NCBI GenBank assembly: GCA_043811915.1
Contig: JBDRMS010000005.1
Coordinates: 41,300-105,299 of the forward strand
Source: a bacterium
GTDB taxonomy: Bacteria; Patescibacteriota; Andersenbacteria; UBA10190
Length of the DNA stretch: 64,000 nucleotides
Direction: 5' to 3'
Shown: positions 3,597 to 19,409 of the stretch, in pieces
Numbering within the stretch: position 1 is the first letter of the stretch
Layout: the number at the start of each line of letters is the position of its first letter
Program-made: the position numbers and the translations under genes
The notes under the pieces: model-generated
What the model was told of the DNA's origin: nothing
What the model saw: the letters and a program-made list of their open reading frames with translations, nothing else
Databases searched by the model: none

Positions 3597-3797
3597 TCAC
3601 CCCTTAAATCTCTTGTCAATTTCAATAACTTTATTTTCAATTTCCTTTAGTCGCTTTTGTAGCTTACTGGCCAGCTCCAGGCCGCGTTCAAATTGCGGCA
3701 GATCTTTTTCTAAATCCAGCTCGCGTGACTCAAAATCCGCCACAATTTTTTCCAGCTCCTCATATCCCCTGGAAAAATTAAATTTATTTCCGCTCAT
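3597..3797 (-). CDS. xseB: exodeoxyribonuclease VII small subunit
   Basis: 66 aa. FEELEKIV..LE-x-xL-x-LE-x-SL-x-xFERG-x-xL-x-xC-x-xL matches the XseB signature. It overlaps the xseA stop by 4 nt. Confidence 0.85.
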   Translation of the reverse strand: MSGNKFNFSRGYEELEKIVADFESRELDLEKDLPQFERGLELASKLQKRLKEIENKVIEIDKRFKG

Positions 3798-4915
3798 AAA
3801 TTATTTCTACTTGTTTTAATTACAGATGAATTAACTAATCCCTCGCTCAACTGTGTTGTTATTGTATCCTTAATTGTTATTTTAGTTACATCCTTAAGTA
3901 TCTTCCCGTCAGCTCCGCGCGTAATACTATAGCCCCTTTTCAGTGTTTGTTGCGGCGATAGCGAGCCCAACATACGCTGCAGTTGAATTATTTTTTGTTG
4001 GGTAGTTTGTAAGCGATTCCTTAAAGTATAACTAACAATTTTAACTGCTCCCTCAATAGCTGCACCTCGCGTTTTTATCTGGTCGATTAGAGCATTAGCC
4101 AATCCCTTATGCATTCCTTCAACTTCCCGTTTAATTTCCTCGCGCGATCGCACCAGTAGCTCAGCCGCGTTGCTGGGAGTGGAAGCCCTTACATCCGCCG
4201 CCAATTCAGCCAATGTTATATCCCTCTCGTGTCCCACCCCGACAATAATGGGAGTTCGCGATGACGCCACAGCCCGCACTACAGACTCATCATTAAAGGC
4301 CTGCAAATCCTCCAAACTCCCTCCGCCGCGCACCAACACGATCGCGTCCAGATTATTAAGGCCGGCATTGGCGGTCTTGAGGGCTTCAATAATTTGGCGG
4401 GGGGCGTCTTCGCCTTGCACTTGCGTATGAATAAATGAAATCGTCAAGCCTCCCATGCGAGCCTGCAGCACTTTCAAAAAATCTGCGTAGGCCGCCGCCT
4501 CGCGAGATGTAATCAGTGCGACGTGTCGGGGAAATCGCGGCAATATCCGTTTTCGCTCGGCTGCAAACATACCCTCGGCCATTAATTTTTTTCTCAACAA
4601 TTCAAACGCGCGTTTGAGCGACCCCTCGCCGGCCGCCTGCACTGACTTTAAATTAAAACTGAACCCCCATTTTTGTGTCAGTCTTGGTCTGCCCGTCACC
4701 TGCACCATCATGCCATTTTCAATTTCCGTCTTCAGGTCCCAAACTGTCATAAAACATCGGACATTGCTTTCTTTGTCTTTCAATGTAAACCGTACCCACT
4801 TATTTCCGCTGATATTAAACTCATCTACCTCCCCCTCTACCATCACCCCGTCAAAAACAATTAAATCATCATCAACAGCGCTGACAAATTCTGTCACCGA
4901 AAGCGCCTTATTCAT
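3794..4915 (-). CDS. xseA: exodeoxyribonuclease VII large subunit
   Basis: 373 aa with an N-terminal OB-fold region and the motif 'LITS-x-x-AAA-x-xD ... DAIVL-x-RGGGS-x-EDL-x-xFN-x-E-x-x-VRAV ... IGHE-x-D-x-TL-x-E-x-xAD-x-RA-x-TPS-x-AAE' typical of XseA. Confidence 0.9.
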   Translation of the reverse strand: MNKALSVTEFVSAVDDDLIVFDGVMVEGEVDEFNISGNKWVRFTLKDKESNVRCFMTVWDLKTEIENGMMVQVTGRPRLTQKWGFSFNLKSVQAAGEGSLKRAFELLRKKLMAEGMFAAERKRILPRFPRHVALITSREAAAYADFLKVLQARMGGLTISFIHTQVQGEDAPRQIIEALKTANAGLNNLDAIVLVRGGGSLEDLQAFNDESVVRAVASSRTPIIVGVGHERDITLAELAADVRASTPSNAAELLVRSREEIKREVEGMHKGLANALIDQIKTRGAAIEGAVKIVSYTLRNRLQTTQQKIIQLQRMLGSLSPQQTLKRGYSITRGADGKILKDVTKITIKDTITTQLSEGLVNSSVIKTSRNNL

Positions 4916-4919
4916 CCCC

Positions 4920-5180
4920 CTATTCCTCCCGGTATGAAGAAAGCCAGTCCATCAGCTTTTTTCTATGCTTATTGATAGTCCATTCACAACCCTCTTTGAA
5001 TAGCGAGGGGTACAAAGTTTGAAATTTTTCTAATGTCTTAAGCGTGGCGCGGGGAAAAGCGTCAGGAATATTTTTGTTGTAATACTCAACAAAAACTTTA
5101 GTAGGTGTCCCTACCAAATTAACATCCACCTCATTAGCTTCTTTTTTGTTCACCAACACACTATACCACACAGGAGACAC
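4920..5180 (-). CDS. hypothetical protein, first gene of the xseA-xseB transcription unit
   Basis: 86-aa ORF ending 4 nt before the xseA start. No recognised motif. Confidence 0.3.
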   Translation of the reverse strand: MSPVWYSVLVNKKEANEVDVNLVGTPTKVFVEYYNKNIPDAFPRATLKTLEKFQTLYPSLFKEGCEWTINKHRKKLMDWLSSYREE

Positions 5181-5210
5181 AAATTCAAGGCCCCGTAGAT
5201 AATAAAAAAT

Positions 5211-5245
5211 CCAGCAGTAGCGTTCAATCTGCTGGAGGAAAAGAC
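5211..5245 (-). terminator. putative intrinsic terminator on the minus strand
   Basis: Perfect 7-bp stem CCAGCAG/CTGCTGG (5221-5227 and 5239-5245) with an 11-nt loop. On the minus strand it is followed immediately by ATTTTTTATT. Confidence 0.35.
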
Positions 5246-5456
5246 ACGCGGCAGTAAATCAAGAAGCGGCTTAGGCGCATCGACAGCCAGCCTGGCAGAA
5301 ATTGAAGCCCAGCTAAAAACAGCCAATCGTTGGGCTGTGCTAAGAAGCCTCAAAGAAGTTCTTTTCCTGGGGCTAATTATTCTCCTGCTGCCTTTGGCCT
5401 ACGCGGGCTGGAAGGCGAATAAAGAAAAAGCCCGGGGGCGGCTTTAAAACAAAAAC

Positions 5457-5720
5457 TTAATGCATCATTTTTAAAAAGTCTGTGCACCCGGGGCACTTCT
5501 CCGTCAACTTCATCTCCGAGGTTGTCTCCCCACCAGGGTTACTGTAAAACACAGCACCACAGTAATAACACTCATGTTCTACTAAACCCCTCGTCCTAAT
5601 CCCTGGTTGTCTCTCAGCGGCTCTTTGCTCCTGCTCCTTCGTGTCTTTTCTTTCACGCAAAAGACAGAAAACAATGCCAACTATGAGCAACAACATCCCG
5701 CTTCCTGCTATCCATTCCAT
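5457..5720 (-). CDS. small membrane-anchored protein with a CxxC...CxxC zinc-ribbon-like C-terminus
   Basis: 87 aa with an N-terminal TM helix, followed by ECYYCG...(17)...CPGC. Confidence 0.35.
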   Translation of the reverse strand: MEWIAGSGMLLLIVGIVFCLLRERKDTKEQEQRAAERQPGIRTRGLVEHECYYCGAVFYSNPGGETTSEMKLTEKCPGCTDFLKMMH

Positions 5721-5881
5721 TATGCCATCTCCTCGAAAACATCTGTCTGTCAGTGTACAAATCCATCCCCACTATTCTCCTTTACTCCCCCCTTGTCAAC
5801 AACGCAGCCAGGCGTCCGGGCCTGTTTGCCCCACGAAGCTTTAGCGAAGTGGGGACCTCATTAACCCCATTAATCTATTTA

Positions 5882-6169
5882 TTAAGTATAAGTAAGATAG
5901 TTATTCGATAATCTGATAACCTCATCCGAAGCATATAGTGGCGCATGTGTATACAACTCTTCCATAAATCTGTTTTGCTTATCTCTATCTTCCCACCCAT
6001 CAAAAAAACCAATTAAATTCTCAAGAAAGATTTTATATTGAGTTTCCTTTCTTTCTGCTATTCTCCGTTGAGTTTCCCTCTTAACCTCAAATAAATGATT
6101 GATGTAAGCTCCAATAATGCCACCCAGCCCAAATAAAGACAAAATTGATAAAATGATTTCAGTGCTCAT
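5882..6169 (-). CDS. hypothetical small membrane protein
   Basis: 95 aa with an N-terminal TM helix (IILSILSLFGLGGIIGAYI). Confidence 0.3.
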   Translation of the reverse strand: MSTEIILSILSLFGLGGIIGAYINHLFEVKRETQRRIAERKETQYKIFLENLIGFFDGWEDRDKQNRFMEELYTHAPLYASDEVIRLSNNYLTYT

Positions 6170-6176
6170 AAATTTA

Positions 6177-6365
6177 CTATGGCCTATATTGCTTCAGGGT
6201 AGTTTGCCTTATCCTCTCTTTAACTTCCTCCGGCCATTTTAACCCCTTGTTCCAAGCCGGCTTGCCTTTTCTGGCCCTTGAAATATTCTCTTTATGCTTT
6301 TTTGTCAGCTTTTTATTTTTATTCCAGGGAATGCGCGCTTTGAATTTGAAGTTTTGATCAGTCAT
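6177..6365 (-). CDS. stand-alone NUMOD3-motif DNA-binding protein (homing-endonuclease-type DNA-binding module)
   Basis: 62 aa with two NUMOD3-like repeats: KKHKENISRARKGK and LKWPEEVKERIRQT (pattern H-x-E-x-x-IS-x-A-x-KGK). No nuclease domain is encoded. Confidence 0.5.
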   Translation of the reverse strand: MTDQNFKFKARIPWNKNKKLTKKHKENISRARKGKPAWNKGLKWPEEVKERIRQTTLKQYRP

Positions 6366-6431
6366 ATATTTAAGTTAAGTATTAGGTATTGATGTAGCAC
6401 TACATCCTATACTACTACATAAAAAATCCTG

Positions 6432-6920
6432 TCAAGATTTGTTTTTGTAATTATCCTTCACCTCCACCGCGTCCAGCCCAAGCTCGCAAAAAATCTCCTC
6501 GTATTTTTTTCGAGCCTCATCAATTTTTGTCACTCGCTCCATGCCATCCATTTTTTGTACCGATTTCTCTCCGTATTCTCGCACCACATCCCGCCAGGCG
6601 AGACGATGAATCAGCTCATCCCAGAAAGTCTCGTCGTCGTACTCTTGCCGCAAGCTCTCCACGTCCGTTAATCCTTCAAACTGGCGTGTGGGAAAGAAAC
6701 GACCCTCATTCATAAGCTCATCATCAACATACTTCGAAAATCCAAATTTCTTGGCGTGCGAGAAAATATAATCTTCAATTTCTTCATATTCCTTCTTCCT
6801 GCCTTCTACCCTATAGGCATTCGCCATCCAGTTACCCAGATAGACAGCTTTCAACAACGCCAAGAACTGCTCCTTGGTAAGTTCAATAGTTCTCTTTTTG
6901 TTCTTGACAATGTTTGACAT
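6432..6920 (-). CDS. hypothetical protein, acidic (E/D-rich) and cytoplasmic
   Basis: 162-aa ORF with no recognisable motif. It lies in the hsdM-proximal islet. Confidence 0.4.
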   Translation of the reverse strand: MSNIVKNKKRTIELTKEQFLALLKAVYLGNWMANAYRVEGRKKEYEEIEDYIFSHAKKFGFSKYVDDELMNEGRFFPTRQFEGLTDVESLRQEYDDETFWDELIHRLAWRDVVREYGEKSVQKMDGMERVTKIDEARKKYEEIFCELGLDAVEVKDNYKNKS

Positions 6921-6994
6921 ACACGTACAATGTAAATAGCCCTCGGGTGCCTCACCGCCGTATCCATTCGGCGCGCATAAGCACCCGGGCTTTT

Positions 6995-7441
6995 TTATGG
7001 CAAAGATAATCGCTTAATTTCTCCATAGGTTAAAACACGATTAGCCTTTCTTTTACCCCTCAAAACCTGAAAACATACATTGTGAGCCGATGAGCTCTTG
7101 CCGATTTCACTAATCTCAAAAGGGGGCACCACCCCATCACCGCGACTCCACATTTCTAAAAACATACTAACAAAAGCACGTTCTTTGCCCGCGTACTCCC
7201 TGTCAAGTCTAATACTCAACTTATCACCCACGCCCGCGTACCTAAGTAACAAAACCACACCTGCCATAAAAACGCGGTATCGGAAAAGCTTAGGTCTGCC
7301 AATCAGGCGAAAATCTTCCTGTAATTTTCTCTTCACCCTGCTCGGCAAAACTACAACATACTGAATATCATTGGACAATCCTATAATTGTGTCTCTGCTC
7401 ATTTGTTCAATTTTTATCGATTGGTCTACTTCAACTCTCAT
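6995..7441 (-). CDS. hypothetical protein translationally coupled to hsdM
   Basis: 148 aa. Its start overlaps the hsdM stop by 4 nt. It has no HsdS-like conserved segments that I can recognise. Confidence 0.4.
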   Translation of the reverse strand: MRVEVDQSIKIEQMSRDTIIGLSNDIQYVVVLPSRVKRKLQEDFRLIGRPKLFRYRVFMAGVVLLLRYAGVGDKLSIRLDREYAGKERAFVSMFLEMWSRGDGVVPPFEISEIGKSSSAHNVCFQVLRGKRKANRVLTYGEIKRLSLP

Positions 7442-8985
7442 AACAACATATCCAAATCATCAACAATTCTTTTCTCTAACTTCCTTCCCTCTTTGAATAA
7501 ATCTCCCAACTCTCCCTTAAATCGCTTCATCTTTTTCTCAAACGGCTCGCCATCGTCATCGTCTTTATCTTCCGTACCAACGTAGCGGCCAGGGTTAAGC
7601 GAATAGCCGGCTTCGCGAACCTCATCAAGTGTTGCCATCTTACACAACCCTTTCACGTCTTCATATTTTTTTGCTCCTTTCTCGACTCGATAGCTGCGCA
7701 CAATGCCGGCAATCTGCTCTATCTGCTCATCCGTCCAATCCCTATGCGCCCGATCAACTTGCCGATAAATATTCCGCGCGTCGATAAACAAAATTTTATC
7801 TTTGCGATCTGCCTTCTTCCCCTTATCCAAAAACCACAACGTAACCGACAACGGCACATTGTAAAACATGTTCGGACCAACAGCCACCATAACATCAATT
7901 ACACCGTCTTCGATAATCTTCTTGCGAATTTCTTTCTCACTATGCCCAGCGTCGCTAGTAGCATTAGACATCACGAACCCGGCCCGGCCCTTGTCTTTCA
8001 AAGAAGCTAGAAAATGCTGAATCCAAATATAGTTGCCGTTATCTGCCCGCGGCACCCCGTACGCAAACCGCGGATCATCCTTAATCCGCCCCATGTCAAT
8101 TCCTTTCACATTGAACGGGGGATTAGCCATGGTGAAATCAAACTTGCCCAGGCTGCGATGCAAATCCTCATAATACGTATTGCCCTGCTTTATATCACCC
8201 GACAGCCCATGAATTGCCAGGTTCATCTTGGCAATGCGAATAGTCTGCTCCGTCTTCTCCTGCCCATACAGTGATATCTCCCGAGACGCTTTTGTTTTTT
8301 TACCATTTTCCAGATGTCGTTTAACAAACTCGTGCGACTGCACAAACATACCGCCCGACCCACAAGCCGGGTCATAAATCTTGCCGTGATATGGCTCAAT
8401 AACCTCAACAATCAGCTTAACAATCGAAGTAGGCGTAAAAAACTCCCCGCCTCGTGACCCATCAGCCAACGCAAACTTACCCAGGAAATATTCATAAATC
8501 CTACCGAACGCGTCACCCTCAATGCCATCGGGAATCTGATTAAAGTTTTTTAGCAACGTAATTAACGTATTGTTATCCAGCTGGTTATAATTATTCGGCA
8601 ACACCCCGGCCAATTCCTTGTTTTCCTCCTCAATCATCTTCATAGCCTCATTCACTGCCTTGCCAACATCAGTTCCTTCAGGAAGAGATATTAAATGTGA
8701 AAAATGTGCTTCATCAGGAATATACAAAACTCCTCGCGCTTGATAATTAGTCGCCGTCACCGGCCGCTGCCGCCGCGTCTTGCGCTTTTCTCTCTCTTTT
8801 TCTATCTCTTCCCTCGCTGTCACAAACCGTACATCGGCGAATTTCAAGAAAATCAAACCTAAAACCGGCTCGGCAAACTCATTCAGCCGCAGCGGCGACT
8901 CCGCCCTCATCTTTCCCGCCGCTTCCCACAATCGACTCTCCAGTGATTTTTGCTGCTTTTCTTTTTTTGTTTTTGCTTTAGCCAT
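7438..8985 (-). CDS. hsdM: type I restriction-modification system N6-adenine DNA methyltransferase subunit
   Basis: 515 aa. Features are an HsdM_N-like start (LWEAAGKMR), the AdoMet motif DPACGSGGMF, and the catalytic NPPF (FTMANPPFN). No hsdR or hsdS is present in the window. Confidence 0.85.
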   Translation of the reverse strand: MAKAKTKKEKQQKSLESRLWEAAGKMRAESPLRLNEFAEPVLGLIFLKFADVRFVTAREEIEKEREKRKTRRQRPVTATNYQARGVLYIPDEAHFSHLISLPEGTDVGKAVNEAMKMIEEENKELAGVLPNNYNQLDNNTLITLLKNFNQIPDGIEGDAFGRIYEYFLGKFALADGSRGGEFFTPTSIVKLIVEVIEPYHGKIYDPACGSGGMFVQSHEFVKRHLENGKKTKASREISLYGQEKTEQTIRIAKMNLAIHGLSGDIKQGNTYYEDLHRSLGKFDFTMANPPFNVKGIDMGRIKDDPRFAYGVPRADNGNYIWIQHFLASLKDKGRAGFVMSNATSDAGHSEKEIRKKIIEDGVIDVMVAVGPNMFYNVPLSVTLWFLDKGKKADRKDKILFIDARNIYRQVDRAHRDWTDEQIEQIAGIVRSYRVEKGAKKYEDVKGLCKMATLDEVREAGYSLNPGRYVGTEDKDDDDGEPFEKKMKRFKGELGDLFKEGRKLEKRIVDDLDMLL

Positions 8986-9001: not shown

Positions 9002-9405
9002 GACTCAATCCTCTCCACCGCCAGCAACTGTTCCAACGAAGTCCTGACTTGCCTCAAATCATTCTCCGTCAACGCTGGATTCAACATCCACAACTGCTTC
9101 GGCCGATTAAACGACCTCCCTTCCTAGTCCACATCAATCGTACCCGCTTTTATGATCAACGGCATACCATCACGCTTAGCAAACGAACTCAAAACACCAC
9201 TAATCTCACGCCCACTCAAAGAAACAATCTCACCCAAGTCATCTGAATTAAACAAACCCTTCTTTTTTGAGCGCATCAACACCATGTGTGACAAAATTTT
9301 CATCGCCACCCGCGAATAATCCCCAAAGTATCCTATATCATATCTACTACCACCACTCATACGGTCGTAGTATATCGCGTCCGCGTAGTGGAAATCAACA
9401 CTCAC
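9002..9405 (-). pseudogene. possible disrupted gene: a 93-codon ORF followed in-frame by TAG and 41 more sense codons
   Basis: The minus-strand frame reads ...KAGTIDVD-TAG-EGRSFNRPKQLWMLNPALTENDLRQVRTSLEQLLAVERIES-TAG. The second stop ends 14 nt before the hsdM start. Confidence 0.2.
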
Positions 9406-9650
9406 CTATACACCCCTTGCCGCTGCCCGACACGGATAACCAAAACCAGCAGCAACTTTCTTTTGGTATAAATTATTCGGTAAGATCCAACTCGTATCGA
9501 ATAGTAGCCTCTGTAATCACCACGCAGCTTTTTGCCCCTGTATGGATCCTCCCCAATAAACACCAACGCCGCGTCAATCCGCCGTTGATGTTTCCTGGGT
9601 ATTTTTTCGAGATCTCTTTTTGCGCTTCTTGTTAACTCTACGCGATGCAT
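9402..9650 (-). CDS. relE: RelE/ParE-family type II toxin
   Basis: MHRVELTRSAKRDLEKI ... RVGSYRIIY ... VIRVGQRQGVY gives the RelE/ParE core. The start is taken at the internal Met (MHRV) instead of the longest ORF. Confidence 0.7.
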   Translation of the reverse strand: MHRVELTRSAKRDLEKIPRKHQRRIDAALVFIGEDPYRGKKLRGDYRGYYSIRVGSYRIIYTKRKLLLVLVIRVGQRQGVYR

Positions 9651-9954
9651 AAACTTCCTTTCCTTTGTCGGCCAGCACATAGCCATGCTCGGCCAGGATG
9701 TCTTCCAAGGAAACTGTTTTCCCTTGCCTTAAATCCTTCTCTGCTTCTTCAACGTCCTTATCTAAATCAGGAAATTGATTCATAACTTCAATAGTCTCCT
9801 GCCAGGATTCAAACTCCTCGGCCGATAGCATAACCACTTTCGCCCGACCCTTCTCGGTCAAAATATAAATAGTCCCTGGTTTTTGCACCTCCTTAGCCAG
9901 GTCGAAAATTCGCTTGCGGGCCTCTGTAAGGGATATGGTATTTCTTGAGTCCAT
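9574..9954 (-). CDS. Phd/YefM-family antitoxin with a Lys/Arg-rich C-terminal tail
   Basis: MDSRNTISLTEARKRIFDLAKEV...YILTEKGRAKVVMLSAEEFESWQETIE is a typical Phd/YefM N-terminus. It lies immediately upstream of relE, with an unusually long overlap of about 77 nt. Confidence 0.55.
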   Translation of the reverse strand: MDSRNTISLTEARKRIFDLAKEVQKPGTIYILTEKGRAKVVMLSAEEFESWQETIEVMNQFPDLDKDVEEAEKDLRQGKTVSLEDILAEHGYVLADKGKEVYASRRVNKKRKKRSRKNTQETSTAD

Positions 9955-9998
9955 AAGATTTTCTTTTAGGATATGTACATTATAACGTACGTTACAAA

Positions 9999-10703
9999 TC
10001 AAAGCAACCCATTCTCCTTAAAACTATACACCCGCGTCTTGCTAAAAATGACATGGTCCAGCAGCTGAATGCCCATTAACTTCCCTGCTTCAACCAGACG
10101 CTTAGTCACCACAATATCCGCCTCGCTTGGGCATGGATCCCCCGACGGGTGATTATGCGCCACCGCGATATGCGTCGCGTTCCGGCGGATAGCCGCGTCA
10201 AACGTCTCTCTGGGGTGCACCAGGTTAGCGTTCACTGTTCCCACCGCTATCCTGTCCACCCCCAACACCCTGTTCCGGTTATCAAACGACACCACAAAAA
10301 AGTTTTCCTTCTTATAATTCCCCACCAGGGGACTAACCACGGCAAAAACATCCTGGGCTGAAGTTACCGCTTTGCTTTTATTCCTATTCTCTTTTCCGCT
10401 CACGTCCTCCTTAACCACCCGCCGCGCTATTTCCAGGCATGCTTTCAATTGCAACGCCTTAGCCGGCCCCAGCCCCGTCACCTCCTGCAACTGTTCCAGT
10501 GAAGCATCTACCACGCCGCGCAAAGACCCGAAGCGGGACAAAAGTTCCTGCGCCAGGTGTATTACCGACTGGCCCGCTACCCCGCGCCCCAGCACCACGG
10601 CCAGCAGCTCCTGCGCCGACACCGCGTCCGGCCCCAATCGCTTAAGCCGCTCCCGCGGCCGCTCCTCCGCCGGCATATCCCTTACCGTAAACGACCCCGC
10701 CAT
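9999..10703 (-). CDS. radC: RadC-family JAB/MPN domain protein
   Basis: Helix-hairpin-helix region (ELLAVVLGRG...LGPAKALQLKA) plus the JAB motif HNHPSGDPCPSEAD. The start is set at MAGSFTVRDMPAEERPRERL. Confidence 0.85.
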   Translation of the reverse strand: MAGSFTVRDMPAEERPRERLKRLGPDAVSAQELLAVVLGRGVAGQSVIHLAQELLSRFGSLRGVVDASLEQLQEVTGLGPAKALQLKACLEIARRVVKEDVSGKENRNKSKAVTSAQDVFAVVSPLVGNYKKENFFVVSFDNRNRVLGVDRIAVGTVNANLVHPRETFDAAIRRNATHIAVAHNHPSGDPCPSEADIVVTKRLVEAGKLMGIQLLDHVIFSKTRVYSFKENGLL

Positions 10704-10806
10704 ATACTCTCTATTGTACCAGCTCCCATAGACGGCGGCACGCCATACTTGCCAAAGCAGGAGTTTTGGATTATCCATAACATTCACGTTAAAGTTTCCT
10801 ATATAT

Positions 10807-11898
10807 ATGAACTTCGCCGTTATTGAATATACTAGCAAGTCAGGGCAGGTCTGGCGACACAGACCCGGTCAGCCTAATTACTTGCAAGACCCGGCCAAAG
10901 TGATTGATCCTACCAGCTTTGGCTGCTACGTTTCGGCCCTGGCCGGAGAGCATATACCTCTTACAAAGCTGATCGGAACCGGCAGCTTGCTCAAAAGAAT
11001 CATTAAGAAATTGACCGGCTCCTGGCCGCAAAATTACTCACTCGAATATTTAAGAAAGTTCGATTGTCTCATAGTTGTCCACCAAATCAGCAACGCCCAC
11101 GAGGTCACCGCCTTTGTTGAGCGTCTGAAGCGGGAACTGCCCCGCCTCTTTATTTTCGGTGTGCCCACCCAGCCTTATGGCATATTAAAACCGCACCTGG
11201 AAAAGAACGACCGGGCCAGGCATAACTTTGTGGAATACATGAACGCCTGCGACGTCTTTCTCACGGTAGTAAAAGACACAAAATCGTGGTATGAATCTTT
11301 GACGACTACGCCGGTAGAATATTTACCCCAGATATATCCTGCCCACTTCGCTGCTAAATTTTTCAAAGCCCAACAACAAAAAGATAAAGTACTGTTCGTC
11401 GCTGGCGTAACCTCCCGCCCCGAAATTATAAGAGGACTTAGAGTAGCCCGAGCCTTACAAAAAGAATTTCCCGATTATATTATCCAGGTTACCCGGATTC
11501 CCGGCATCGACATGAACCTTTCAGAATTGGCCGGCGCGAATTATGAAGTTTTGCCCTTCCAGCAGTGGCGTCAGCATTTACCCGAGCTGGCTAAAAAGAT
11601 GCTCGTTATTAATACCGACTACACTTTAACCCGCGGCCGTGTGCAGGTGGACTGTGCCGCCGTCGGCACTCCCAGCCTGGGCGCCAACTCCGACGGGCAA
11701 ACCGACTTATATCCACTTCTTGCCTCAAGACCAGAAACATCAGTCGAAGAGCTTGTTAGTTTGGGACAAAAACTACTCACCGACGAAACTTACTATCAGC
11801 AAACAGTCCAAACAGCCCAGCACAAACTGCAAAAATACGATTACGAAGAATCAGCCGTCCGCCTTCAACTATTAGTCAAGTCATATAGAAAAATATGA
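10807..11898 (+). CDS. putative glycosyltransferase (GT-B-like), first gene of the glycan locus
   Basis: 363 aa. The call rests only on its position heading a run of GT genes and on a Rossmann-like second half; no diagnostic motif was found. Confidence 0.3.
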   Translation: MNFAVIEYTSKSGQVWRHRPGQPNYLQDPAKVIDPTSFGCYVSALAGEHIPLTKLIGTGSLLKRIIKKLTGSWPQNYSLEYLRKFDCLIVVHQISNAHEVTAFVERLKRELPRLFIFGVPTQPYGILKPHLEKNDRARHNFVEYMNACDVFLTVVKDTKSWYESLTTTPVEYLPQIYPAHFAAKFFKAQQQKDKVLFVAGVTSRPEIIRGLRVARALQKEFPDYIIQVTRIPGIDMNLSELAGANYEVLPFQQWRQHLPELAKKMLVINTDYTLTRGRVQVDCAAVGTPSLGANSDGQTDLYPLLASRPETSVEELVSLGQKLLTDETYYQQTVQTAQHKLQKYDYEESAVRLQLLVKSYRKI

Positions 11899-12914
11899 AG
11901 CGCTTTCTCATTAGACACCTGGGAAATATGGGAGATATGGTCTTCTTTATCCCCCCCGTGCTGGCCACATTAAAAAAACACTACCCCGGCTGCCATATAA
12001 CTTTTGTCACTGTCTGGGGTTTCAAAGATAAAAAAGGGCAGTGGGGGAAAAGAGACCAGGGTGGCTTCTCCATCCACCTCATAATGACCAACCCTCATCT
12101 TGATCAACTCGTTCACTACCACGACACCAAGCTGTCACTGGATGGCAAAATATGCCGCGAGGATGGTCAAAGTTTTCCCACCTGGAACAAAAAATACTAT
12201 GACCAACAAAAAAACTCTGGCCGGTATGATCAGGTTTTCGAGCTGGATTTTGGCTTGAAGGTTGACGATAATCCTATTCAGCGCATGTATGAAACTATTG
12301 GCTTGCCTAATGAGACCCTCACTGATTATAAAATTTACTTTACGGACCGGGACCTGGCAGCAGCCCAGGCCGTTATTGATGACGCCCCTCGCCCGCGCAT
12401 AGTCCTCCTCGAAGGACTGGCCAGTACCACCACCCGCGGATGGGATCCCGGAAAAATACCAGCTCTCGAGCAAGCCATCAAAGAAGTATATCAGGTTGAT
12501 CCTATCTGGTTCGGCGGCAACTATATTCCGGATTACCAGGGGCGTTCTCTTTCTTTACGTGAAAACATTGCCACTTTGTCTTATTGTGATGCTGGCATCG
12601 GGGTTATGTCAGGCCCCATCCATTTTGCTGCCGCCGCCGACCTCCCCACCCTCACTTTATATTGCGACCACCCCATACATCGTGCTGCACCCGCCTATTT
12701 TCTCGGGAAAAAACACCGCACTTTACTCGGTCCTTCCACCCGGCCCTACCAGTTGCTTAAGAACGAGCAGCCAGCCATTGCCCTAACGCCCGCCGAGATC
12801 TCGCGTCAGCAATTCAAAAGTTGGAATCAGCCTGGTCGCCAGACCACCAAAACATGTCTGTCAGTAATTACCGTAGACGAAATCATGCTAGTCTTAAAAG
12901 AAATGTTATCGTAA
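11895..12914 (+). CDS. GT9 heptosyltransferase-family glycosyltransferase
   Basis: The N-terminus LIRHLGNMGDMVFFIPPVLATLKKHYPGCHITFVT matches the RfaF/WaaC-type motif (I-x-x-S-x-x-GD-x-x-x-x-P-x-x-x-x-LK-x-x-YP-x-A-x-I). The C-terminal segment is DAGIGVMSGPIHFAAA. Confidence 0.7.
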   Translation: MKRFLIRHLGNMGDMVFFIPPVLATLKKHYPGCHITFVTVWGFKDKKGQWGKRDQGGFSIHLIMTNPHLDQLVHYHDTKLSLDGKICREDGQSFPTWNKKYYDQQKNSGRYDQVFELDFGLKVDDNPIQRMYETIGLPNETLTDYKIYFTDRDLAAAQAVIDDAPRPRIVLLEGLASTTTRGWDPGKIPALEQAIKEVYQVDPIWFGGNYIPDYQGRSLSLRENIATLSYCDAGIGVMSGPIHFAAAADLPTLTLYCDHPIHRAAPAYFLGKKHRTLLGPSTRPYQLLKNEQPAIALTPAEISRQQFKSWNQPGRQTTKTCLSVITVDEIMLVLKEMLS

Positions 12915-12916
12915 TT

Positions 12917-13621
12917 ATGAATTCTCCCTGGGTAGTCATTCCCACTTACAATGAAAAAGGCAATATCGAACGCATGATTTCTTCCCTTTTCAGCCAAGGG
13001 GTCAACAATCTGTCGGTCCTTATTGTCGACGATAATTCCCCCGACGGAACAGGTGGCATAGTTCGTCGCCTGCAAGCAAGCTATCCCAACCTCCATCTGG
13101 AAATTCGGGCTAAGAAATCCGGTCTGGGGCGAGCTTATATTCACGGCTTCCGCTATGCGCTTGATCACGATGCTACTAATGTAGTCCAAATGGACGCCGA
13201 TTTCTCTCATGATCCCAAGGATGTTCCCCGCTTATTACAACAATTAGACCAATATGACGTTGTCATTGGCTCCCGTTACTCCCACGGCATCAGTGTTATC
13301 AACTGGCCCTTAAGCCGCTTACTATTAAGTACCGCCGCCAACTATTACGCCCGTCTGGTTACCGGCCTGCCGTACAAAGATGTCACCGGTGGTTTCCGTG
13401 CCTGGCGTGCCTCCTCCCTTGCCGCTATAAAACCGGAAAAGGTCAAGGCCGACGGCTATGGTTTTCAGATTGTTATGACCCACCGCGCCTGGCGACTAAA
13501 GCTTTCTTTTTCAGAAATCCCCATCATTTTTACCGAACGCCGTGAGGGTCAATCTAAAATGAGTAAATCCATAATGTGGGAAGCATTTTGGTTAGTATGG
13601 AAACTAAGACTTTTTGGTTAG
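12917..13621 (+). CDS. GT2 polyprenyl-phosphate glycosyltransferase (DPM1/CsbB/GtrB-like)
   Basis: WVVIPTYNEKGNIERMI ... LIVDDNSPDGT ... QMDADFSHDP ... VIGSRY is the canonical dolichyl/undecaprenyl-phosphate sugar synthase pattern. The start is at the internal Met right after the upstream stop. Confidence 0.85.
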   Translation: MNSPWVVIPTYNEKGNIERMISSLFSQGVNNLSVLIVDDNSPDGTGGIVRRLQASYPNLHLEIRAKKSGLGRAYIHGFRYALDHDATNVVQMDADFSHDPKDVPRLLQQLDQYDVVIGSRYSHGISVINWPLSRLLLSTAANYYARLVTGLPYKDVTGGFRAWRASSLAAIKPEKVKADGYGFQIVMTHRAWRLKLSFSEIPIIFTERREGQSKMSKSIMWEAFWLVWKLRLFG

Positions 13622-15774
13622 GACTCCTAGTACTTGTCCTCGTCTTTACATTCTATCCCCTTTGGCAGGGTAAATTTTATGCCGTCGGCGATATGCGCGA
13701 CGTCTTCATCCCTCTGGAAACTTTCTTTCGTCAGGAAATGCTTGCCTTTCGTCTTCCCTCCTGGAATCCGGACATCGCCTGGGGTTTTCCTGTTATTGCC
13801 TCCGCCCAAATTGGCTTTTTCTACCCACCCTTGCTTCTTCTTCGCCTTTTTCCTCCCTGGTTGTACATTCCTCTTATCCTGCTAGGTCACTTGGCTGCTT
13901 TGGCCATTGGCACATTTTTCTTCTTTCGTGCCCTTAAAATTACTCACGCGGGCTCTTATTTTGGCAGCATAAACTACACTCTGGGCAGCTTTATAATTCA
14001 GCATCTTTCTCACCTCAACATAATCATTACCACTGCCTGGCTCCCCTGGCAGCTTCTTGCTGTCCACAAAATAACTGCCAGGCCCAGGCTTGCTATCAGA
14101 CAGATTATTATACTGTCCCTCGTATTCGGGCTTCCTTTCCTGGCCGGGCAATTACAAATACCGGCCATGATGGCTATCGTATCCGCCGCTTACTTCTTTT
14201 ATCTTCGTTTTCAACAGCGCAAAAATATTTTTCGTCCCGTCCTTCTCCTGCTGTTGATTGCGGCGCTTTCCTTTCTTATTGCTGCCGCTCAACTTCTGCC
14301 CACTCTTGAGCTAATCACGCAGTCCTCTCGTGGACCCTCTGGCGACTTTGATATCCAGCAAGCCAACCAATATAGTTTTCCTCTTTATCACCTCCCCACG
14401 TTGATCTGGCCGCGTTTTTATGGGAATGACAGCACTTATTGGGGCGCCCGTCTGCAAGTCGAACAAGGCATATTTATCGGGTCAATCCCCCTAATACTTG
14501 CCCTATGGTTTATTGTTACAAGAATTAGCCGGCATATAAATCGATTCTGGCTTTTTCTTCTAATCATTTCTTTTTTTCTCGCCCTAGGCTCCCTTTCCCC
14601 ATTCAGACTTCTCGGCCTTGAGCCTTCCTTGTGGGTTTTTTCCGCCCCCGCCCGGTGGCTACTCTTCACAACCTTTTCTCTGTCCTTGTTTGCAGCTCGG
14701 GGGCTCGACCTGGCGCCAAAACACACGTGCTCGCTTAGACGTTTTGCTTTTTTTGGCGCCATTATTATTACTGCCATTGCCTTAATCGGCACGCTTGTCT
14801 TATTCACTGCCGACGACTCGCTTCTTAAAAATCTGGCCGCTAATGCCTTTTGGGGTAATCTTAATCGCCTCCCGGACTACTATACAGAGAAACTCAACAG
14901 TCTTATTAACAGCGCCCGCTCCAGTTCCTTTTCCCTGGCCGCGCCGGCTGCCGCTCTCCCCGTAATATTTTTAAGTGCTCTCCCCTTTATTCTTACCAGA
15001 CGACGCTGTTTGCCCGTTATACTTGCTATCACTACTGTCGAACTTGTCATTATCGCTGCCACAACCATCCCCGCCACCAGTTGGAATAATATACTTACAC
15101 CGCCCGATACCATCGCCGCTCTTCCCGCTGTCGTACTGGAAAAACAGGCTCGCATTTTTTCTTTCCGCCCGCCCGGCGACACCGGGCAATATTTCAGCAA
15201 CCCGGAAACCAGGCCCGACGCTAAAACGCGTGCCCAGCTCCGAACATTGCTTACGCCGCTAAGCCATGCCATCTATCACCTTCCCGGTATTGAGTGGCCG
15301 GCTTCTCTTCACCTGGCCTATCATGCTGACGTGCTTGATAGCATCCGCAGTTCTGACAGCCAGTGGCTTAAAGACGTAAACCGCGCTGAGCAATTGAACA
15401 TTGGCGCCGTACTCGTGCCCGCAAATGATGGCGTTAGCATCTACCAACTGTCCCCTGCCCCCCGCGCTTCCACCCAAGGCGCCAGTACATATCAGACCAT
15501 CAGTCCTACGCACACCAGGATATCAGTGGATGTGCCCGCCGACGCCGCTCTGACCATTCGCGACAGTTACTACCCTGGCTGGCGCGCCTATATAGACGAC
15601 GTCCGTACCCCTATCGCCCAAGCCGACGCAATCTTTCGTCAGTTAGCCATCCCTGCCGGCCGCCACCAGGTTGACATGTACTATCGCCCCCTGGCCCTGT
15701 ACCTCGGTCTGGTTTTATCGGCCCTGACTATTACCTTTTCCGCTGTGGTTATATTAAAGTCAGAACGAATATGA
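13597..15774 (+). CDS. YfhO-like GT-C-type polytopic membrane glycosyltransferase
   Basis: About 725 aa with roughly 12-14 N-terminal TM helices, a large C-terminal extracytoplasmic domain and a final TM helix. It lies directly downstream of a CsbB-like GT2, which is the classic CsbB-YfhO arrangement. Confidence 0.55.
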   Translation: METKTFWLGLLVLVLVFTFYPLWQGKFYAVGDMRDVFIPLETFFRQEMLAFRLPSWNPDIAWGFPVIASAQIGFFYPPLLLLRLFPPWLYIPLILLGHLAALAIGTFFFFRALKITHAGSYFGSINYTLGSFIIQHLSHLNIIITTAWLPWQLLAVHKITARPRLAIRQIIILSLVFGLPFLAGQLQIPAMMAIVSAAYFFYLRFQQRKNIFRPVLLLLLIAALSFLIAAAQLLPTLELITQSSRGPSGDFDIQQANQYSFPLYHLPTLIWPRFYGNDSTYWGARLQVEQGIFIGSIPLILALWFIVTRISRHINRFWLFLLIISFFLALGSLSPFRLLGLEPSLWVFSAPARWLLFTTFSLSLFAARGLDLAPKHTCSLRRFAFFGAIIITAIALIGTLVLFTADDSLLKNLAANAFWGNLNRLPDYYTEKLNSLINSARSSSFSLAAPAAALPVIFLSALPFILTRRRCLPVILAITTVELVIIAATTIPATSWNNILTPPDTIAALPAVVLEKQARIFSFRPPGDTGQYFSNPETRPDAKTRAQLRTLLTPLSHAIYHLPGIEWPASLHLAYHADVLDSIRSSDSQWLKDVNRAEQLNIGAVLVPANDGVSIYQLSPAPRASTQGASTYQTISPTHTRISVDVPADAALTIRDSYYPGWRAYIDDVRTPIAQADAIFRQLAIPAGRHQVDMYYRPLALYLGLVLSALTITFSAVVILKSERI

Positions 15775-16958
15775 AGCTGCTTTTTTCCGCCTTCACCGGC
15801 TATAACTTAAGAGAACTACTGCTGCCGCTTACTCCCCTCATTAACCAGGACAAGAATATCAATGAAGTTATCGTTGTCAGTCCGGCCGCTCCCTACCGCG
15901 ATCAGCTGTTCGCTTATCTCCCCGCTAAATACAGGTTTTTAACCGATCAACCCGGCGTTAGCGGCTACAAAAAATTATTATCTGACCACCAACCAGATTG
16001 CGTCGTTACCCCAACTCCCGGCCTGGAAGAAAAAGACATTCCTCTACTGCAAGCAGCCAGGCAAATCGGCATCCCCACCGTTACTTTCATAGCCAGCTGG
16101 GACAATGTATATAAATTAGCCAGGCGCATAAAAATTAGAAAATATAAACAACAATACGCCGTTGCTGATCACTTTGCTGTCTGGAACGCCATGAATAAGA
16201 AACATCTTCTTAACATCGTCCCGCGCCTCGCGCCACAGCAGATAACAGTCACCGGTGCCCCCCGCCTCGACTTCCTGTCCGACCCGGTCAAAATTCCCAG
16301 TCGGGAAACTTTGCTGCAGCGTCTGAAAATTCCTGATGACGGGAAAAAGTTAATCCATGTAGCTTCCACGGAACTATATCCCAGCGACTACATCATCAAA
16401 GCCATCGCTGACCGTGGCGACTGTCACATTCTGTTGTCAGTCCACCCGGGAGGAAATATTACCTTCCACCGCCGTTATGCGGAGCCCTACCGCGCTTTCG
16501 TTCGCTATTCATTTGGCCGCCGCCGGCATTCCCCTGTGCCGGAGTTTACTTATAACCCCACCCTGGATGATCTTCGCCTGCACGCTGCCCTATTTCTTCA
16601 TAGTGATCTCCTTATTAATCATTCTTCCACCGTTACCATTGAATCTTTGCTGGCTGACACACCTGTTATTAATGTCAAATATGGCAAACCCCTGGACTGG
16701 TGGCGCTGGCACCGCTCTATGGTTTACCGGGATTTCAATCAGCACGCCAGAATTATTATCGATTCCGGCGCCACCGCCGTTGTCCATTCTCGCCGCGAGC
16801 TCATTAATGCCGTAGCCGCCAATCTGCAGGATCCGGCCATGCATCAAGCTGCCCGCCGCGCCCTGGCTATCAAAATGGTCACCATTACCGACGGCACCGC
16901 CGGCCGGAGACTACTTGACCTCATCAAAAATGTTGCCGACTATAAAGGTACACCATGA
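15771..16958 (+). CDS. putative GT-B-fold transferase (TagB/TagF- or capsule-biosynthesis-like)
   Basis: 395 aa with a two-Rossmann-like layout and a His-rich segment HILLSVHPGGNITFH. The assignment is tentative. Confidence 0.3.
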   Translation: MKLLFSAFTGYNLRELLLPLTPLINQDKNINEVIVVSPAAPYRDQLFAYLPAKYRFLTDQPGVSGYKKLLSDHQPDCVVTPTPGLEEKDIPLLQAARQIGIPTVTFIASWDNVYKLARRIKIRKYKQQYAVADHFAVWNAMNKKHLLNIVPRLAPQQITVTGAPRLDFLSDPVKIPSRETLLQRLKIPDDGKKLIHVASTELYPSDYIIKAIADRGDCHILLSVHPGGNITFHRRYAEPYRAFVRYSFGRRRHSPVPEFTYNPTLDDLRLHAALFLHSDLLINHSSTVTIESLLADTPVINVKYGKPLDWWRWHRSMVYRDFNQHARIIIDSGATAVVHSRRELINAVAANLQDPAMHQAARRALAIKMVTITDGTAGRRLLDLIKNVADYKGTP

Positions 16959-17821
16959 CTTTCCATTGCATTGCCTTCCCCGTTCAGATACAAACCGTCA
17001 ACTTTTTAAGAGCTGCCTGTATTAAGCGTAAAATTGATTTTAATTTAATCAATCCCGCGGCAGTTGATTACACCAATACCAGCAACATCCCGATGGCCGG
17101 TGATATCCTTTATCGTGCACCCACCGTACAATCTAACAGTAAAGATGCCGGGGTTGTTGAAGGATTTCTGCTCCACGACCAGGTTACAACTTTCTATCAC
17201 TCATATCAGCGTGCTCTCTGTCGCTTCGTCAGCTCTTTTGTAGTTCACCAGAAAGCCAATCTGCCCATTCCCAAAACCATTCCCCGCCTTAGTTGCAACC
17301 GGAAACTGCTCAAAAAATATGTCGACTATGTCGGCGGTTTTCCCGTCATTATCAAAGCCACCGGCGGCAGCCACGGCATCGGCGTTATGAAAGTAGACTC
17401 TATGGAGTCACTTTTTTCCATTGTCGACTATCTGCACCAGAGTCACCAGCACATAATTATGCGGCAATTTATTGATGTCGCAACATCCGCCCGCCTCATT
17501 GTTCTAGGCAACCAGATAGTCTCCAGCATAGAATATGCCGCTCCCGACGATGACTTTCGCTCCAATGTGGGAATTTTTCCTATCGTGAAAGCCAAGGAAT
17601 TCCCTCCGGAAATTCAAAAACTGGCCATCGAAGCCACGCAGCTATTAGGTGTTGATTTTGGTGGCGTCGACATTTTAATCGACAATGAAAGTAAGCCCTT
17701 CATCACCGAAGTCAACTTTCCCTGTAACTTCGCCCGCGCCCAAAAAACTACCGGCATTGATATTGCCGGTCTGATGGTTGACTTTCTTGTTCAGAAATCT
17801 AAACGGTCGACTGGTGACTAA
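16955..17821 (+). CDS. ATP-grasp domain ligase (RimK-like)
   Basis: The ATP-grasp motifs are VIIKATGGSHGIGVMKV, LIVLGNQIVSSIEY and GVDFGGVDIL...ITEVNFPCNF. Confidence 0.7.
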   Translation: MTFHCIAFPVQIQTVNFLRAACIKRKIDFNLINPAAVDYTNTSNIPMAGDILYRAPTVQSNSKDAGVVEGFLLHDQVTTFYHSYQRALCRFVSSFVVHQKANLPIPKTIPRLSCNRKLLKKYVDYVGGFPVIIKATGGSHGIGVMKVDSMESLFSIVDYLHQSHQHIIMRQFIDVATSARLIVLGNQIVSSIEYAAPDDDFRSNVGIFPIVKAKEFPPEIQKLAIEATQLLGVDFGGVDILIDNESKPFITEVNFPCNFARAQKTTGIDIAGLMVDFLVQKSKRSTGD

Positions 17822-18473
17822 ACGAGGTGTTGTAACATTTGTTTTTGACGACGGCTATGAACGTGTTTACCAAAACGCCCTACCCCTGCTTAATAAATAC
17901 AACATGCCGGCTGTATTCGCCGTTTCTCTTGATGCCCCCAAATTAACCAGGGGAAAAGAGTTCAGAAAAATAAGGCCCTGGCAGGGCTGGCTGCCCCTTC
18001 GTCACCAGGGTCACGAAATAGCCTCCCACACCGTCACTCATCCCGACTTGACTAAAATCGATGCCGCCCGGCTTGACCATGAGCTGCAACAATCAGCCCG
18101 GTTACTCAATACCACTACTCTCGTTTATCCAGGCGGTGCATTTAATGATGATGTAGTGCGAGCAGCCAGCAAATATTACACTGCCGCCCGCACTATCAAA
18201 AAAGGGCTGGAATCCCTGCCGCCCCGGGATGCTCTACGCCTCAAGGTTAAGAAAAACTATTCACGTAACAACTTCTCCGTTTTAAAAGCTAATCTTCGTG
18301 TCTTATGGGCTTATCTCACCAATTCCTGGATCATCGAAACCTTCCACATGATCGACGATGATGATCAACAGATGGTACACACTGTTAAAACAAGCGATTT
18401 CTCTAATCACCTAGCTTTTGTCAGCCGTCTTCCCATTCAAGTTAAAACCATCTGCGACTGTCTCGGGAAATAA
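17778..18473 (+). CDS. polysaccharide deacetylase (CE4/NodB homology domain)
   Basis: The NodB motifs are TFVFDDGY, HTVTHPDL and LVYPGG. The 5' end overlaps the preceding gene, so the true start may be a non-ATG codon. Confidence 0.7.
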   Translation: MTFLFRNLNGRLVTKRGVVTFVFDDGYERVYQNALPLLNKYNMPAVFAVSLDAPKLTRGKEFRKIRPWQGWLPLRHQGHEIASHTVTHPDLTKIDAARLDHELQQSARLLNTTTLVYPGGAFNDDVVRAASKYYTAARTIKKGLESLPPRDALRLKVKKNYSRNNFSVLKANLRVLWAYLTNSWIIETFHMIDDDDQQMVHTVKTSDFSNHLAFVSRLPIQVKTICDCLGK

Positions 18474-19409
18474 CATATCAACAATATCTCGGGCCGGGTT
18501 GCGTTTATCCCCTCGCGTTGGTTGCAAATGAAGTGTCAAATCAGGAGCCGAATTCAGTTCAATAATCCTGCCGATAGATGATTTTATATCAGGTGTTATG
18601 CAGTCAATCCCCACTACTGAAGCATCAAAAAGTTCAGCCACCCTCATCGCTTCAGATTTGATTGTCTCGCCAATTGTGTTCGTTATATCAACCACGGTAC
18701 CTCCTAAATGAGCGTTTACCGCCGCAGCCAGCACAACCTGGCGTCCCTTTTCCGGCACGCTTTCCAAATCCAAACCCTGTTTACTTAATATCTCGCTCAC
18801 CATCTCTCCCAATTTGACCCGGCGGCCAGCCGGCGCCGAATCATTTTTACTTTTTATCAGTTGTTCAACGTTACTCACGCCATCACTCGCCACTCCCGCC
18901 GCGAAACGCTGTACCGCATACACAATTCTTTTATCCAGTACTAGTAGTCGCATTTCCTGCCCGTCAACATGTTCCTGGCACACAACTCTTCGTTCGCCCG
19001 CACTACTCTTTTGCTCTCTGGCAAATTTCACGGCTCGAGCTACCTGGCCAGGCGTAGTTATGTTCGGAGTAACACCGTTGCCTTGTACTCCGCAAACCGG
19101 TTTGATTACAATTTTTCTGTGCTTTTCAAGAAACCTTAAAATCATATTCAAATCATCAGTATAAAGAGTAGCCGGCACCGGAAAGCCCAGCTGTTCAAGC
19201 ATATTTATAGCCAAAGCCTTGTTCGAGAAAATTTTGTAAGTAACACTGCCAGACTTATTAGAACAGCTTTGACAAACAAGTTCCCGGTGTCCATTCAGCT
19301 CCAATACCGCAATGTTTCGGTTTATATCCTCCATTGTTGTGGCCTTTATGCCACGCCGACAAGCCTCTTTGACAATAATTTCAGTATGTGCACTAATACC
19401 ATTCTGCAT
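18411..19409 (-). CDS. ATP-grasp domain ligase (cyanophycin-synthetase or D-Ala-D-Ala-ligase-like)
   Basis: The ATP-grasp segments are KIVIKPVCGVQGNGV, RVVCQEHVDGQEMRLLVLDKRIV and GIDCITPDI...IIELNSAPDL. Confidence 0.6.
   Translation of the reverse strand: MQNGISAHTEIIVKEACRRGIKATTMEDINRNIAVLELNGHRELVCQSCSNKSGSVTYKIFSNKALAINMLEQLGFPVPATLYTDDLNMILRFLEKHRKIVIKPVCGVQGNGVTPNITTPGQVARAVKFAREQKSSAGERRVVCQEHVDGQEMRLLVLDKRIVYAVQRFAAGVASDGVSNVEQLIKSKNDSAPAGRRVKLGEMVSEILSKQGLDLESVPEKGRQVVLAAAVNAHLGGTVVDITNTIGETIKSEAMRVAELFDASVVGIDCITPDIKSSIGRIIELNSAPDLTLHLQPTRGDKRNPARDIVDMLFPETVADGFNLNGKTADKS

Follow-up and report, generated by a model that had tools for sequence, protein, structure and literature searches.

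A probable stump of a type I restriction-modification island with an intact hsdM and two small guest genes in a Patescibacteria-like genome

What should be made of an intact type I methyltransferase gene when hsdS and hsdR, which otherwise accompany it, are missing from its surroundings? The question is raised by hsdM in a 64,000-nt stretch of contig JBDRMS010000005.1, which was analyzed over its whole length and is called the window below. A sequence-only reading of the window had placed hsdM at 7438..8985, without an hsdS or hsdR partner, and had offered either a degraded restriction-modification (R-M) or homing-endonuclease remnant or a non-canonical methyltransferase-based defense or epigenetic module. 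The coordinates and the missing partners were borne out by the list of open reading frames (ORFs) and by tblastn. Of the explanations offered, the degraded R-M remnant gained support from the comparison with related loci, and we consider it probable that the locus represents not a new defense system but a type I R-M island, in a Patescibacteria-like genome, of which the hsdM-proximal stump is left. The anatomy of the locus, the comparison with relatives, and the folds described below are results of the tools named with them.

Related hsdM islands retain hsdS and hsdR

The comparison set consisted of 80 metagenomic loci with HsdM relatives (35-78% identical), in which ORFs were called and then clustered. 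Within this set, hsdS was present in all 47 loci that had at least 2.5 kb of sequence downstream of hsdM, and hsdR was present in all 26 that had at least 7 kb. Neither gene was found in the window. When HsdS and HsdR proteins encoded by the related loci served as tblastn queries against the 64 kb, the best E was 0.005, with no match for hsdR, and the largest ORF in the window encodes a 732-aa YfhO-family protein. To the left of the window, the next 10 kb contain only glycosyltransferase and polysaccharide-synthesis (cell-envelope) genes and likewise lack hsdS and hsdR, which brings the searched span to ∼74 kb around hsdM. HsdS and HsdR, two of the subunits expected of a type I R-M system, are not encoded at the locus. 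The constant presence of both genes in the relatives and the absence of both here point to a truncated type I island.

In the canonical type I operon (hsdM-hsdS-hsdR), the methylase acts as M2S1, and enzymes of the EcoKI type form M2S1 and R2M2S1 complexes. The window HsdM has the domain architecture (HsdM_N plus N6_Mtase) and the catalytic motifs of these systems and is 63-78% identical to the HsdM of complete operons with the radC-hsdM layout; however, with no hsdS or hsdR within ∼74 kb, the multi-subunit enzyme cannot assemble from the locus. The locus also resembles solitary methyltransferases such as Dam and CcrM in having a methylase gene without a cognate nuclease. Dam and CcrM, however, are single-chain enzymes with a DNA-recognition domain of their own, whereas HsdM depends on a separate HsdS, and none is present at the locus. 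Since a type I methylase requires HsdS to recognize DNA (PMC11411939), HsdM cannot methylate or restrict from this locus alone.

The related islands share a layout that is visible in the window as well. A RadC gene lies directly upstream of hsdM in 25 of the 48 related loci with enough upstream sequence, and the window radC falls into the same blastp cluster (c3) as those genes. The sequence-only reading had described the islet as flanked by a RelE-Phd toxin-antitoxin pair and RadC; the positions were right, but RadC as a mere flank does not hold, as by sequence comparison it is a conserved upstream neighbor and part of the island layout. Between hsdM and hsdS, 37 of 65 HsdS-bearing loci carry one to three guest genes (64-491 aa). 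Clustering separated these guests into many unrelated groups, among them NYN-domain proteins and several families that Pfam does not match. An AAA_14/DUF4143 ATPase recurs between hsdS and hsdR. In most clade loci, the hsdM stop overlaps the next start by 4 nt (ATGA), and this -4 junction precedes at least nine unrelated gene clusters. The hsdM stop thus resembles a fixed in-phase site at which cassettes could be exchanged; a junction of this kind, serving many passenger genes, bears on the exchange of embedded defense genes. The ATGA junction was seen across L061-L110 (e.g., L063 8001-9527, L068, and L085). In addition, a Fic gene often lies upstream of radC-hsdM, and a large serine recombinase is encoded several genes further up, on the opposite strand (L067, L083, L096, L099, L102, and L107). 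These neighbors suggest a mobile island that comprises all of radC-hsdMSR.

On the minus strand, read from 10840 to 4900, the window has the order radC, Phd, ParE/RelE, a 93-aa ORF, hsdM, ORF148, ORF162, a NUMOD3 ORF, and three small ORFs, followed by xseA/xseB. The features are as follows.

9999..10838, minus strand: radC, RadC-like JAB domain plus UPF0758_N (Pfam RadC, E 8e-41)
9574..10002, minus strand: Phd/YefM-type antitoxin, between radC and hsdM (Pfam PhdYeFM_antitox PF02604, E 3e-13)
9402..9686, minus strand: ParE/RelE-superfamily toxin (Pfam ParE_toxin PF05016, E 1.4e-12)
9124..9405, minus strand: 93-aa ORF, its start overlapping the ParE stop by 4 nt
7438..8985, minus strand: hsdM, type I methyltransferase subunit, 515 aa, intact (Pfam HsdM_N and N6_Mtase, PADLOC MTase_I)
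6995..7441, minus strand: ORF148, basic small protein with a predicted RNase HII-like fold, in the guest slot directly after hsdM
6938..6991, minus strand: stable RNA hairpin just 3′ of the ORF148 stop (fold energy, z-score)
6432..6920, minus strand: ORF162, helical, mildly acidic, of a family recurrent in type I R-M operons
6177..6365, minus strand: 62-aa basic ORF with two NUMOD3-type repeats (Pfam NUMOD3, 22.5 bits)
4920..6169, minus strand: three small low-GC ORFs of 95, 87, and 86 aa (ORF list), which fill the hsdS/hsdR space of the relatives up to xseA
3794-4915: xseA, the next gene after the three small ORFs

From the comparison, we infer a loss event for which the following course would account. 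The ancestral layout would have been radC, hsdM, zero to three unrelated small guests, hsdS, possibly a further guest, and hsdR. In the window genome, hsdS and hsdR would have been lost, and the Phd/ParE toxin-antitoxin pair would have been gained between radC and hsdM. The genes remaining would then be radC, the toxin-antitoxin pair, the intact hsdM, and the guests ORF148 and ORF162, after which a low-GC run of small ORFs with a lone NUMOD3 peptide would extend as far as xseA.

HsdM is intact and highly conserved

The hsdM product was matched by Pfam HsdM_N (E 4e-20) and N6_Mtase (E 2e-96) and by the PADLOC MTase_I model (E 3e-198), and it aligned over its full length with phrog_2713 (E 9e-131). 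The motifs DPACGSG, at residue 205, and NPPF, at residue 288, are both present, as expected of a type I HsdM subunit. Against the NCBIfam TIGR00497 hsdM equivalog, the protein scored 120.7 bits, below the curated cut-off of 242.75, and it belongs to an HsdM subfamily other than TIGR00497. Two other assignments were rejected. As a MADS MAD2 methylase, the protein scored 48.9 bits with NF047738, for which the cut-off is 720, and the PADLOC mad2 match (E 7e-38) was far weaker than that to MTase_I. Scores for BREX methylases were also far below their cut-offs.

The window HsdM is 73-75% identical to a tight HsdM clade, the members of which are 89-93% identical among themselves. Of the 176 positions with a conservation of at least 97% in the other 31 HsdM sequences of the alignment, it retains 171, and the five deviations (N29E, D80N, I195V, V249I, and A343T) are mostly conservative. 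The alignment with HsdS-paired relatives runs to residue 511-515, showing that the C-terminal region is retained. The conserved positions together with the preserved motifs do not follow the pattern of an old pseudogene. Judging from its sequence, HsdM would be either a recently orphaned subunit or the partner of an HsdS whose gene lies in another part of the genome.

The second of these options is the rival that survives best. HsdM would be fully active in a split system, with hsdS, and perhaps hsdR, encoded elsewhere in the same genome, and the 171 clade-invariant positions, both catalytic motifs, and the retained C-terminal region speak for it. Several points count against a truncated island in the same way. 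The conservation of HsdM is too strong for a long-dead relic. The protein is also an outlier, only ∼74% identical to the nearest clade, and its own closest lineage might be organized differently. Neither a deletion scar nor a fragment of hsdS or hsdR was found in the searched span, so that the loss is deduced from comparison only, and a partner hsdS may lie elsewhere in the genome, outside the ∼74 kb. On the other hand, hsdS lies within a few kilobases downstream of hsdM in all 47 informative loci and is nowhere in the ∼74 kb here. On balance, we regard a split system as unlikely and a truncated island as the probable explanation.

ORF162 belongs to a family of R-M passengers

If the locus is a truncated island, the genes that follow hsdM would be guests of the kind seen in the relatives. 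ORF162 had been called an acidic 162-aa protein; the size holds, but the acidity is only mild (pI 5.3; 34 D+E versus 29 K+R). Going by the sequence alignments, the 162-aa length is likelier than the later start chosen by the gene caller, because the homolog alignments begin upstream of that start. The AlphaFold2 model of ORF162 is a helical bundle (pLDDT 86) with no meaningful PDB or viral fold match.

At least 95 homologs of ORF162, of 145-170 aa, were found, and the homologs of the small ORFs come almost all from Patescibacteria. A genome scan with one genome per species gave 41 ORF162 loci, which are found in Patescibacteria and also in Syntrophorhabdaceae, other Deltaproteobacteria, Aminicenantes, Bacillota, Bacteroidetes, and Elusimicrobia. 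The homolog stands just after hsdM and before hsdS/hsdR in 7 of the 41 genome loci, a homolog lies between hsdM and hsdS in locus L012 as well, and in three of the seven type I loci it ends 3-4 nt before hsdS. An example of a complete operon is that of the homolog P0073, which reads hsdM, DUF3800, ORF165, two small genes, hsdS, two genes, and hsdR. Other guests in ORF162-bearing operons include DUF3800, NYN, Bro-N, AntA, RhuM, and reverse transcriptase proteins, as well as a weak LPD3 match below the Pfam cut-off. In five more loci, the homolog lies within 1.3 kb of a YgjP-like metallopeptidase gene, and in two loci RadC is near it. The remaining ORF162 loci have no common neighbor. With regard to phage carriage, IMG/VR yielded no relative of ORF162 and one of ORF148. 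Based on these sequence contexts, members of the ORF162 family travel repeatedly as passengers in type I R-M islands and in related ones.

Two side observations concern the same loci. In three of the complete type I operons, hsdR is followed by the gene of the YgjP-like metallopeptidase (PF01863), and the five YgjP-ORF162 loci are without detected hsd genes (YgjP-like peptidase loci: L024, L027, L028, L026, L035, L039, L041, and L045). In L030, a Fic gene lies just upstream of the ORF162 homolog, and no hsd genes were detected there.

A lone NUMOD3 ORF follows the guests

Downstream of ORF162 lies the 62-aa ORF (pI 11) that had been described as made of two NUMOD3 repeats. That description was upheld, though the Pfam threshold was passed narrowly (22.5 bits versus a cut-off of 20.4, E 1e-4); the two repeats are of the W-N-K type and lie at residues 14 and 38. 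No relatives were found among 5.8 billion proteins, where the sole match was an identical NCBI entry. Among phage proteins, a homing endonuclease matched best, at a weak E of 0.07 over 28 residues. A GIY-YIG or HNH nuclease domain is neither attached to the ORF nor encoded by its neighbors, ORF162 and ORF95. Compared with the NUMOD3 modules of GIY-YIG/HNH homing endonucleases of the I-TevI type, the window ORF shares the two basic repeats but is limited to 62 aa, without a nuclease domain and without homologs.

These data bear on the homing-endonuclease half of the earlier remnant proposal, which fared less well than the R-M half: the NUMOD3 ORF is real, but it has no relatives and no nuclease domain nearby. 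In this alternative, a NUMOD3-bearing enzyme would have inserted into or replaced hsdS/hsdR and then decayed to its DNA-binding tail. According to the Pfam description of the family, homing endonucleases are where NUMOD3 is typically found; the weak phage match and the low GC of the segment also speak for this alternative. The ORF also sits after ORF162, at the position where hsdS begins in ORF162-carrying operons, which is suggestive but no proof. However, the missing GIY-YIG/HNH remnant, the absence of an hsdS fragment nearby, the lack of relatives, and a Pfam score barely above threshold leave a homing-endonuclease scar doubtful as the cause of the missing genes. The ORF itself may be either a homing-endonuclease relic or a chance small ORF.

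ORF148 is a predicted RNase H-like protein

The guest directly after hsdM is ORF148, a basic protein (pI 10.2) of 148 aa. A test for an HsdS target-recognition domain or a nuclease fold had been proposed for the ORFs at 6995..7441 and 6432..6920; the first proved RNase H-like in its model and not HsdS, and the second, as described above, is helical and without a match. The AlphaFold2 model of ORF148 is confident (pLDDT 93.4) and shows a five-stranded mixed sheet in the order β1-2-3-α-β4-α-β5-α, which is the arrangement of the RNase H-like superfamily. This model also ruled out ORF148 as a half-HsdS or target-recognition domain. A relationship to DUF3800, which fills the same slot in L012 and L020, was rejected as well (hhalign probability 0.2%).

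RNase HII has the Glu of the DEDD motif after its first Asp, and the ORF148 family differs in having a near-invariant Gln at this position. In comparison with RNase HII and HIII, ORF148 is only 148 aa long and 9-13% identical. A Pfam match was obtained for 0 of 52 family members, and no PDB sequence matched below E 0.1. Judged by sequence, ORF148 therefore lies outside the RNase HII family proper. Across 52 diverse members, D6, S8, E12, K37, E82, and H120 are invariant and Q7, D80, and Y83 are near-invariant, with D6 sometimes replaced by Asn within the close family. In the model, D6 (strand 1), D80/E82 (end of strand 4), and H120 (helix after strand 5) would occupy the usual RNase H-type catalytic positions.

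The 32 close homologs are ∼148 aa long, and the few with source names come from Patescibacteria-type metagenome-assembled genomes (MAGs). By profile search, the family comprises ∼1,000 clusters at 50% identity, nearly all of them single-domain proteins of ∼150 aa. Its genes were found after uvrA, between uvrB and ruvA, after femAB, and among AbiEii/PIN/NYN/HEPN toxin-antitoxin genes. A profile search of all 88 other hsdM-carrying loci found no ORF148 relative in them, and five independent ORF148 contexts and one viral contig all lack hsdM. A conserved two-gene module containing ORF148 was likewise rejected, as the small neighbors in six contexts share no similarity. Since ORF148 occurs elsewhere without hsdM and without a conserved small partner, its model and its contexts suggest a free-standing protein, probably nucleic-acid-cleaving, that happens to fill the hsdM guest slot.

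On the viral contig (IMG/VR contig L142, 679-3909), the ORF148 relative lies directly after genes for a D5-type primase-helicase and a zinc-ribbon primase, and a gene near it encodes a DNA methylase with a fused Mrr-like nuclease domain. In L004, a 100-aa ORF starting MYIFLDESGNF (7240-7542, minus strand) lies ∼460 nt upstream of an ORF148 homolog, on the opposite strand; from the resemblance of this motif, we take it to be a possible truncated DUF3800-type gene.

The 4-nt overlap between hsdM and ORF148 was confirmed, with the ORF148 ATG inside ...TTATGA. The 91 nt at 6915-7005 fold at -35 kcal/mol (z-score -2.3 versus shuffles), and the main stem is followed by UAUUU. The hairpin at 6938-6991 is a possible terminator, which would close an hsdM-ORF148 transcription unit.

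A self-contained module, the other proposal of the sequence-only reading, would join HsdM to the coupled RNase H-like ORF148, with or without ORF162, in a methylase-plus-nuclease defense or epigenetic system free of HsdS and HsdR. ORF148 would replace HsdR as the effector, a role that we hold to be very improbable. The overlap and the hairpin after ORF148 do suggest a two-gene transcript, and the basic ORF148 has invariant acidic and His residues at what in the model are positions typical of RNase H-like active sites. However, the overlap is not the sign of special coupling for which it had been taken, because ATGA is the generic link between hsdM and its downstream neighbor in this clade, whatever that gene may be. 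The absence of ORF148 relatives from the 88 other hsdM loci and the absence of hsdM from the other ORF148 contexts largely refute the module, and ORF162 is a passenger of complete operons. It is also established that HsdM has no DNA-recognition domain of its own. The module is thus unsupported, and we give it very little credence. In a weaker version, also improbable, ORF162 would be a dedicated, unrecognized accessory factor that serves type I R-M enzymes of Patescibacteria and other phyla. It is the module, however, against which the missing hsdM-ORF148 co-occurrence argues strongly.

Comparison with embedded genes of type I operons

We know of no defense activity for the ORF148 or ORF162 family. 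Under the truncated-island explanation, the guests would probably act independently of HsdM, like the embedded cargo of other type I operons. Unrelated genes embedded in type I operons have been documented, such as PrrC in EcoprrI, TgvAB in Vibrio cholerae VPI-2, and the "guilt-by-embedding" candidates of Payne et al. 2024, and embedded genes such as TgvAB and PrrC were shown to act on their own (PMC11411939; bioRxiv 10.1101/2024.01.29.577857). Like these, ORF148 and ORF162 lie on the same strand directly after hsdM, in a slot of varied small genes, and homologs of ORF162 are likewise embedded in complete type I operons. In contrast, the system surrounding them in the window is incomplete, and neither protein matches a PADLOC defense model.

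Truncated R-M loci, orphaned subunits, and embedded cargo are already known, and only the identity of the two cargo families is new. The locus would be a case of ordinary R-M decay in a small genome that points to two protein families without a Pfam model. No new mechanism is shown here, and the ORF148 and ORF162 families are reasonable candidates for "guilt-by-embedding" screens.

Neighboring genes and flanks of the island

The arrangement was reproduced in a second assembly from another sequencing run (L003), which encodes identical proteins from ORF148 through xseA and thus shows that it is not an assembly artifact. A chimeric join after hsdM or its guests, made in assembly or binning, could be suspected from the start of L003 53 nt upstream of ORF148, where that contig breaks inside the hsdM 3′ end, but with an 89-kb contig from another run spanning the whole region and the agreement of the two assemblies from ORF148 to xseA, the chance of such an artifact is minimal.

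The three small ORFs downstream of the NUMOD3 ORF have a GC content of 0.33-0.47, compared to 0.477 for the whole window, and show no similarity to HsdS or HsdR. ORF87 (5457-5720) has an N-terminal hydrophobic segment and a CxxC...CxxC pattern resembling a membrane-anchored zinc ribbon, with no family match. ORF86 (4920-5180) is the only one of the three with a relative in the fetched loci, at L040 531-953 (E 1e-17), ∼2.3 kb from an ORF162 homolog on a contig from Saccharibacteria, so that the ORF86 and ORF162 families co-occur a second time.

Upstream of hsdM, the adjacent, overlapping Phd and ParE/RelE genes form a type II toxin-antitoxin pair. The Phd ORF, listed with 142 aa and a TTG start, shares about 110 nt with the ParE ORF. 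The 93-aa ORF (9124..9405) has no family match in Pfam, PADLOC, or NCBIfam, and because it overlaps the ParE stop by 4 nt, the toxin-antitoxin unit may count three genes.

The 64 kb contain no tRNA genes, and none of the flanking repeats was convincing, so that the boundaries of the island are not set. On either side of the island lies a large cluster of genes for glycosyltransferases, YfhO, MurJ-type flippases, and ATP-grasp proteins, one at 10807-19400 and the other in the 10 kb to the left of the window (L141). The GC skew is negative in every 1-kb bin of 1-64000, ranging from -0.10 to -0.39 with a mean of about -0.24, and genes lie on both strands. This skew is much stronger than expected for a typical bacterial genome.

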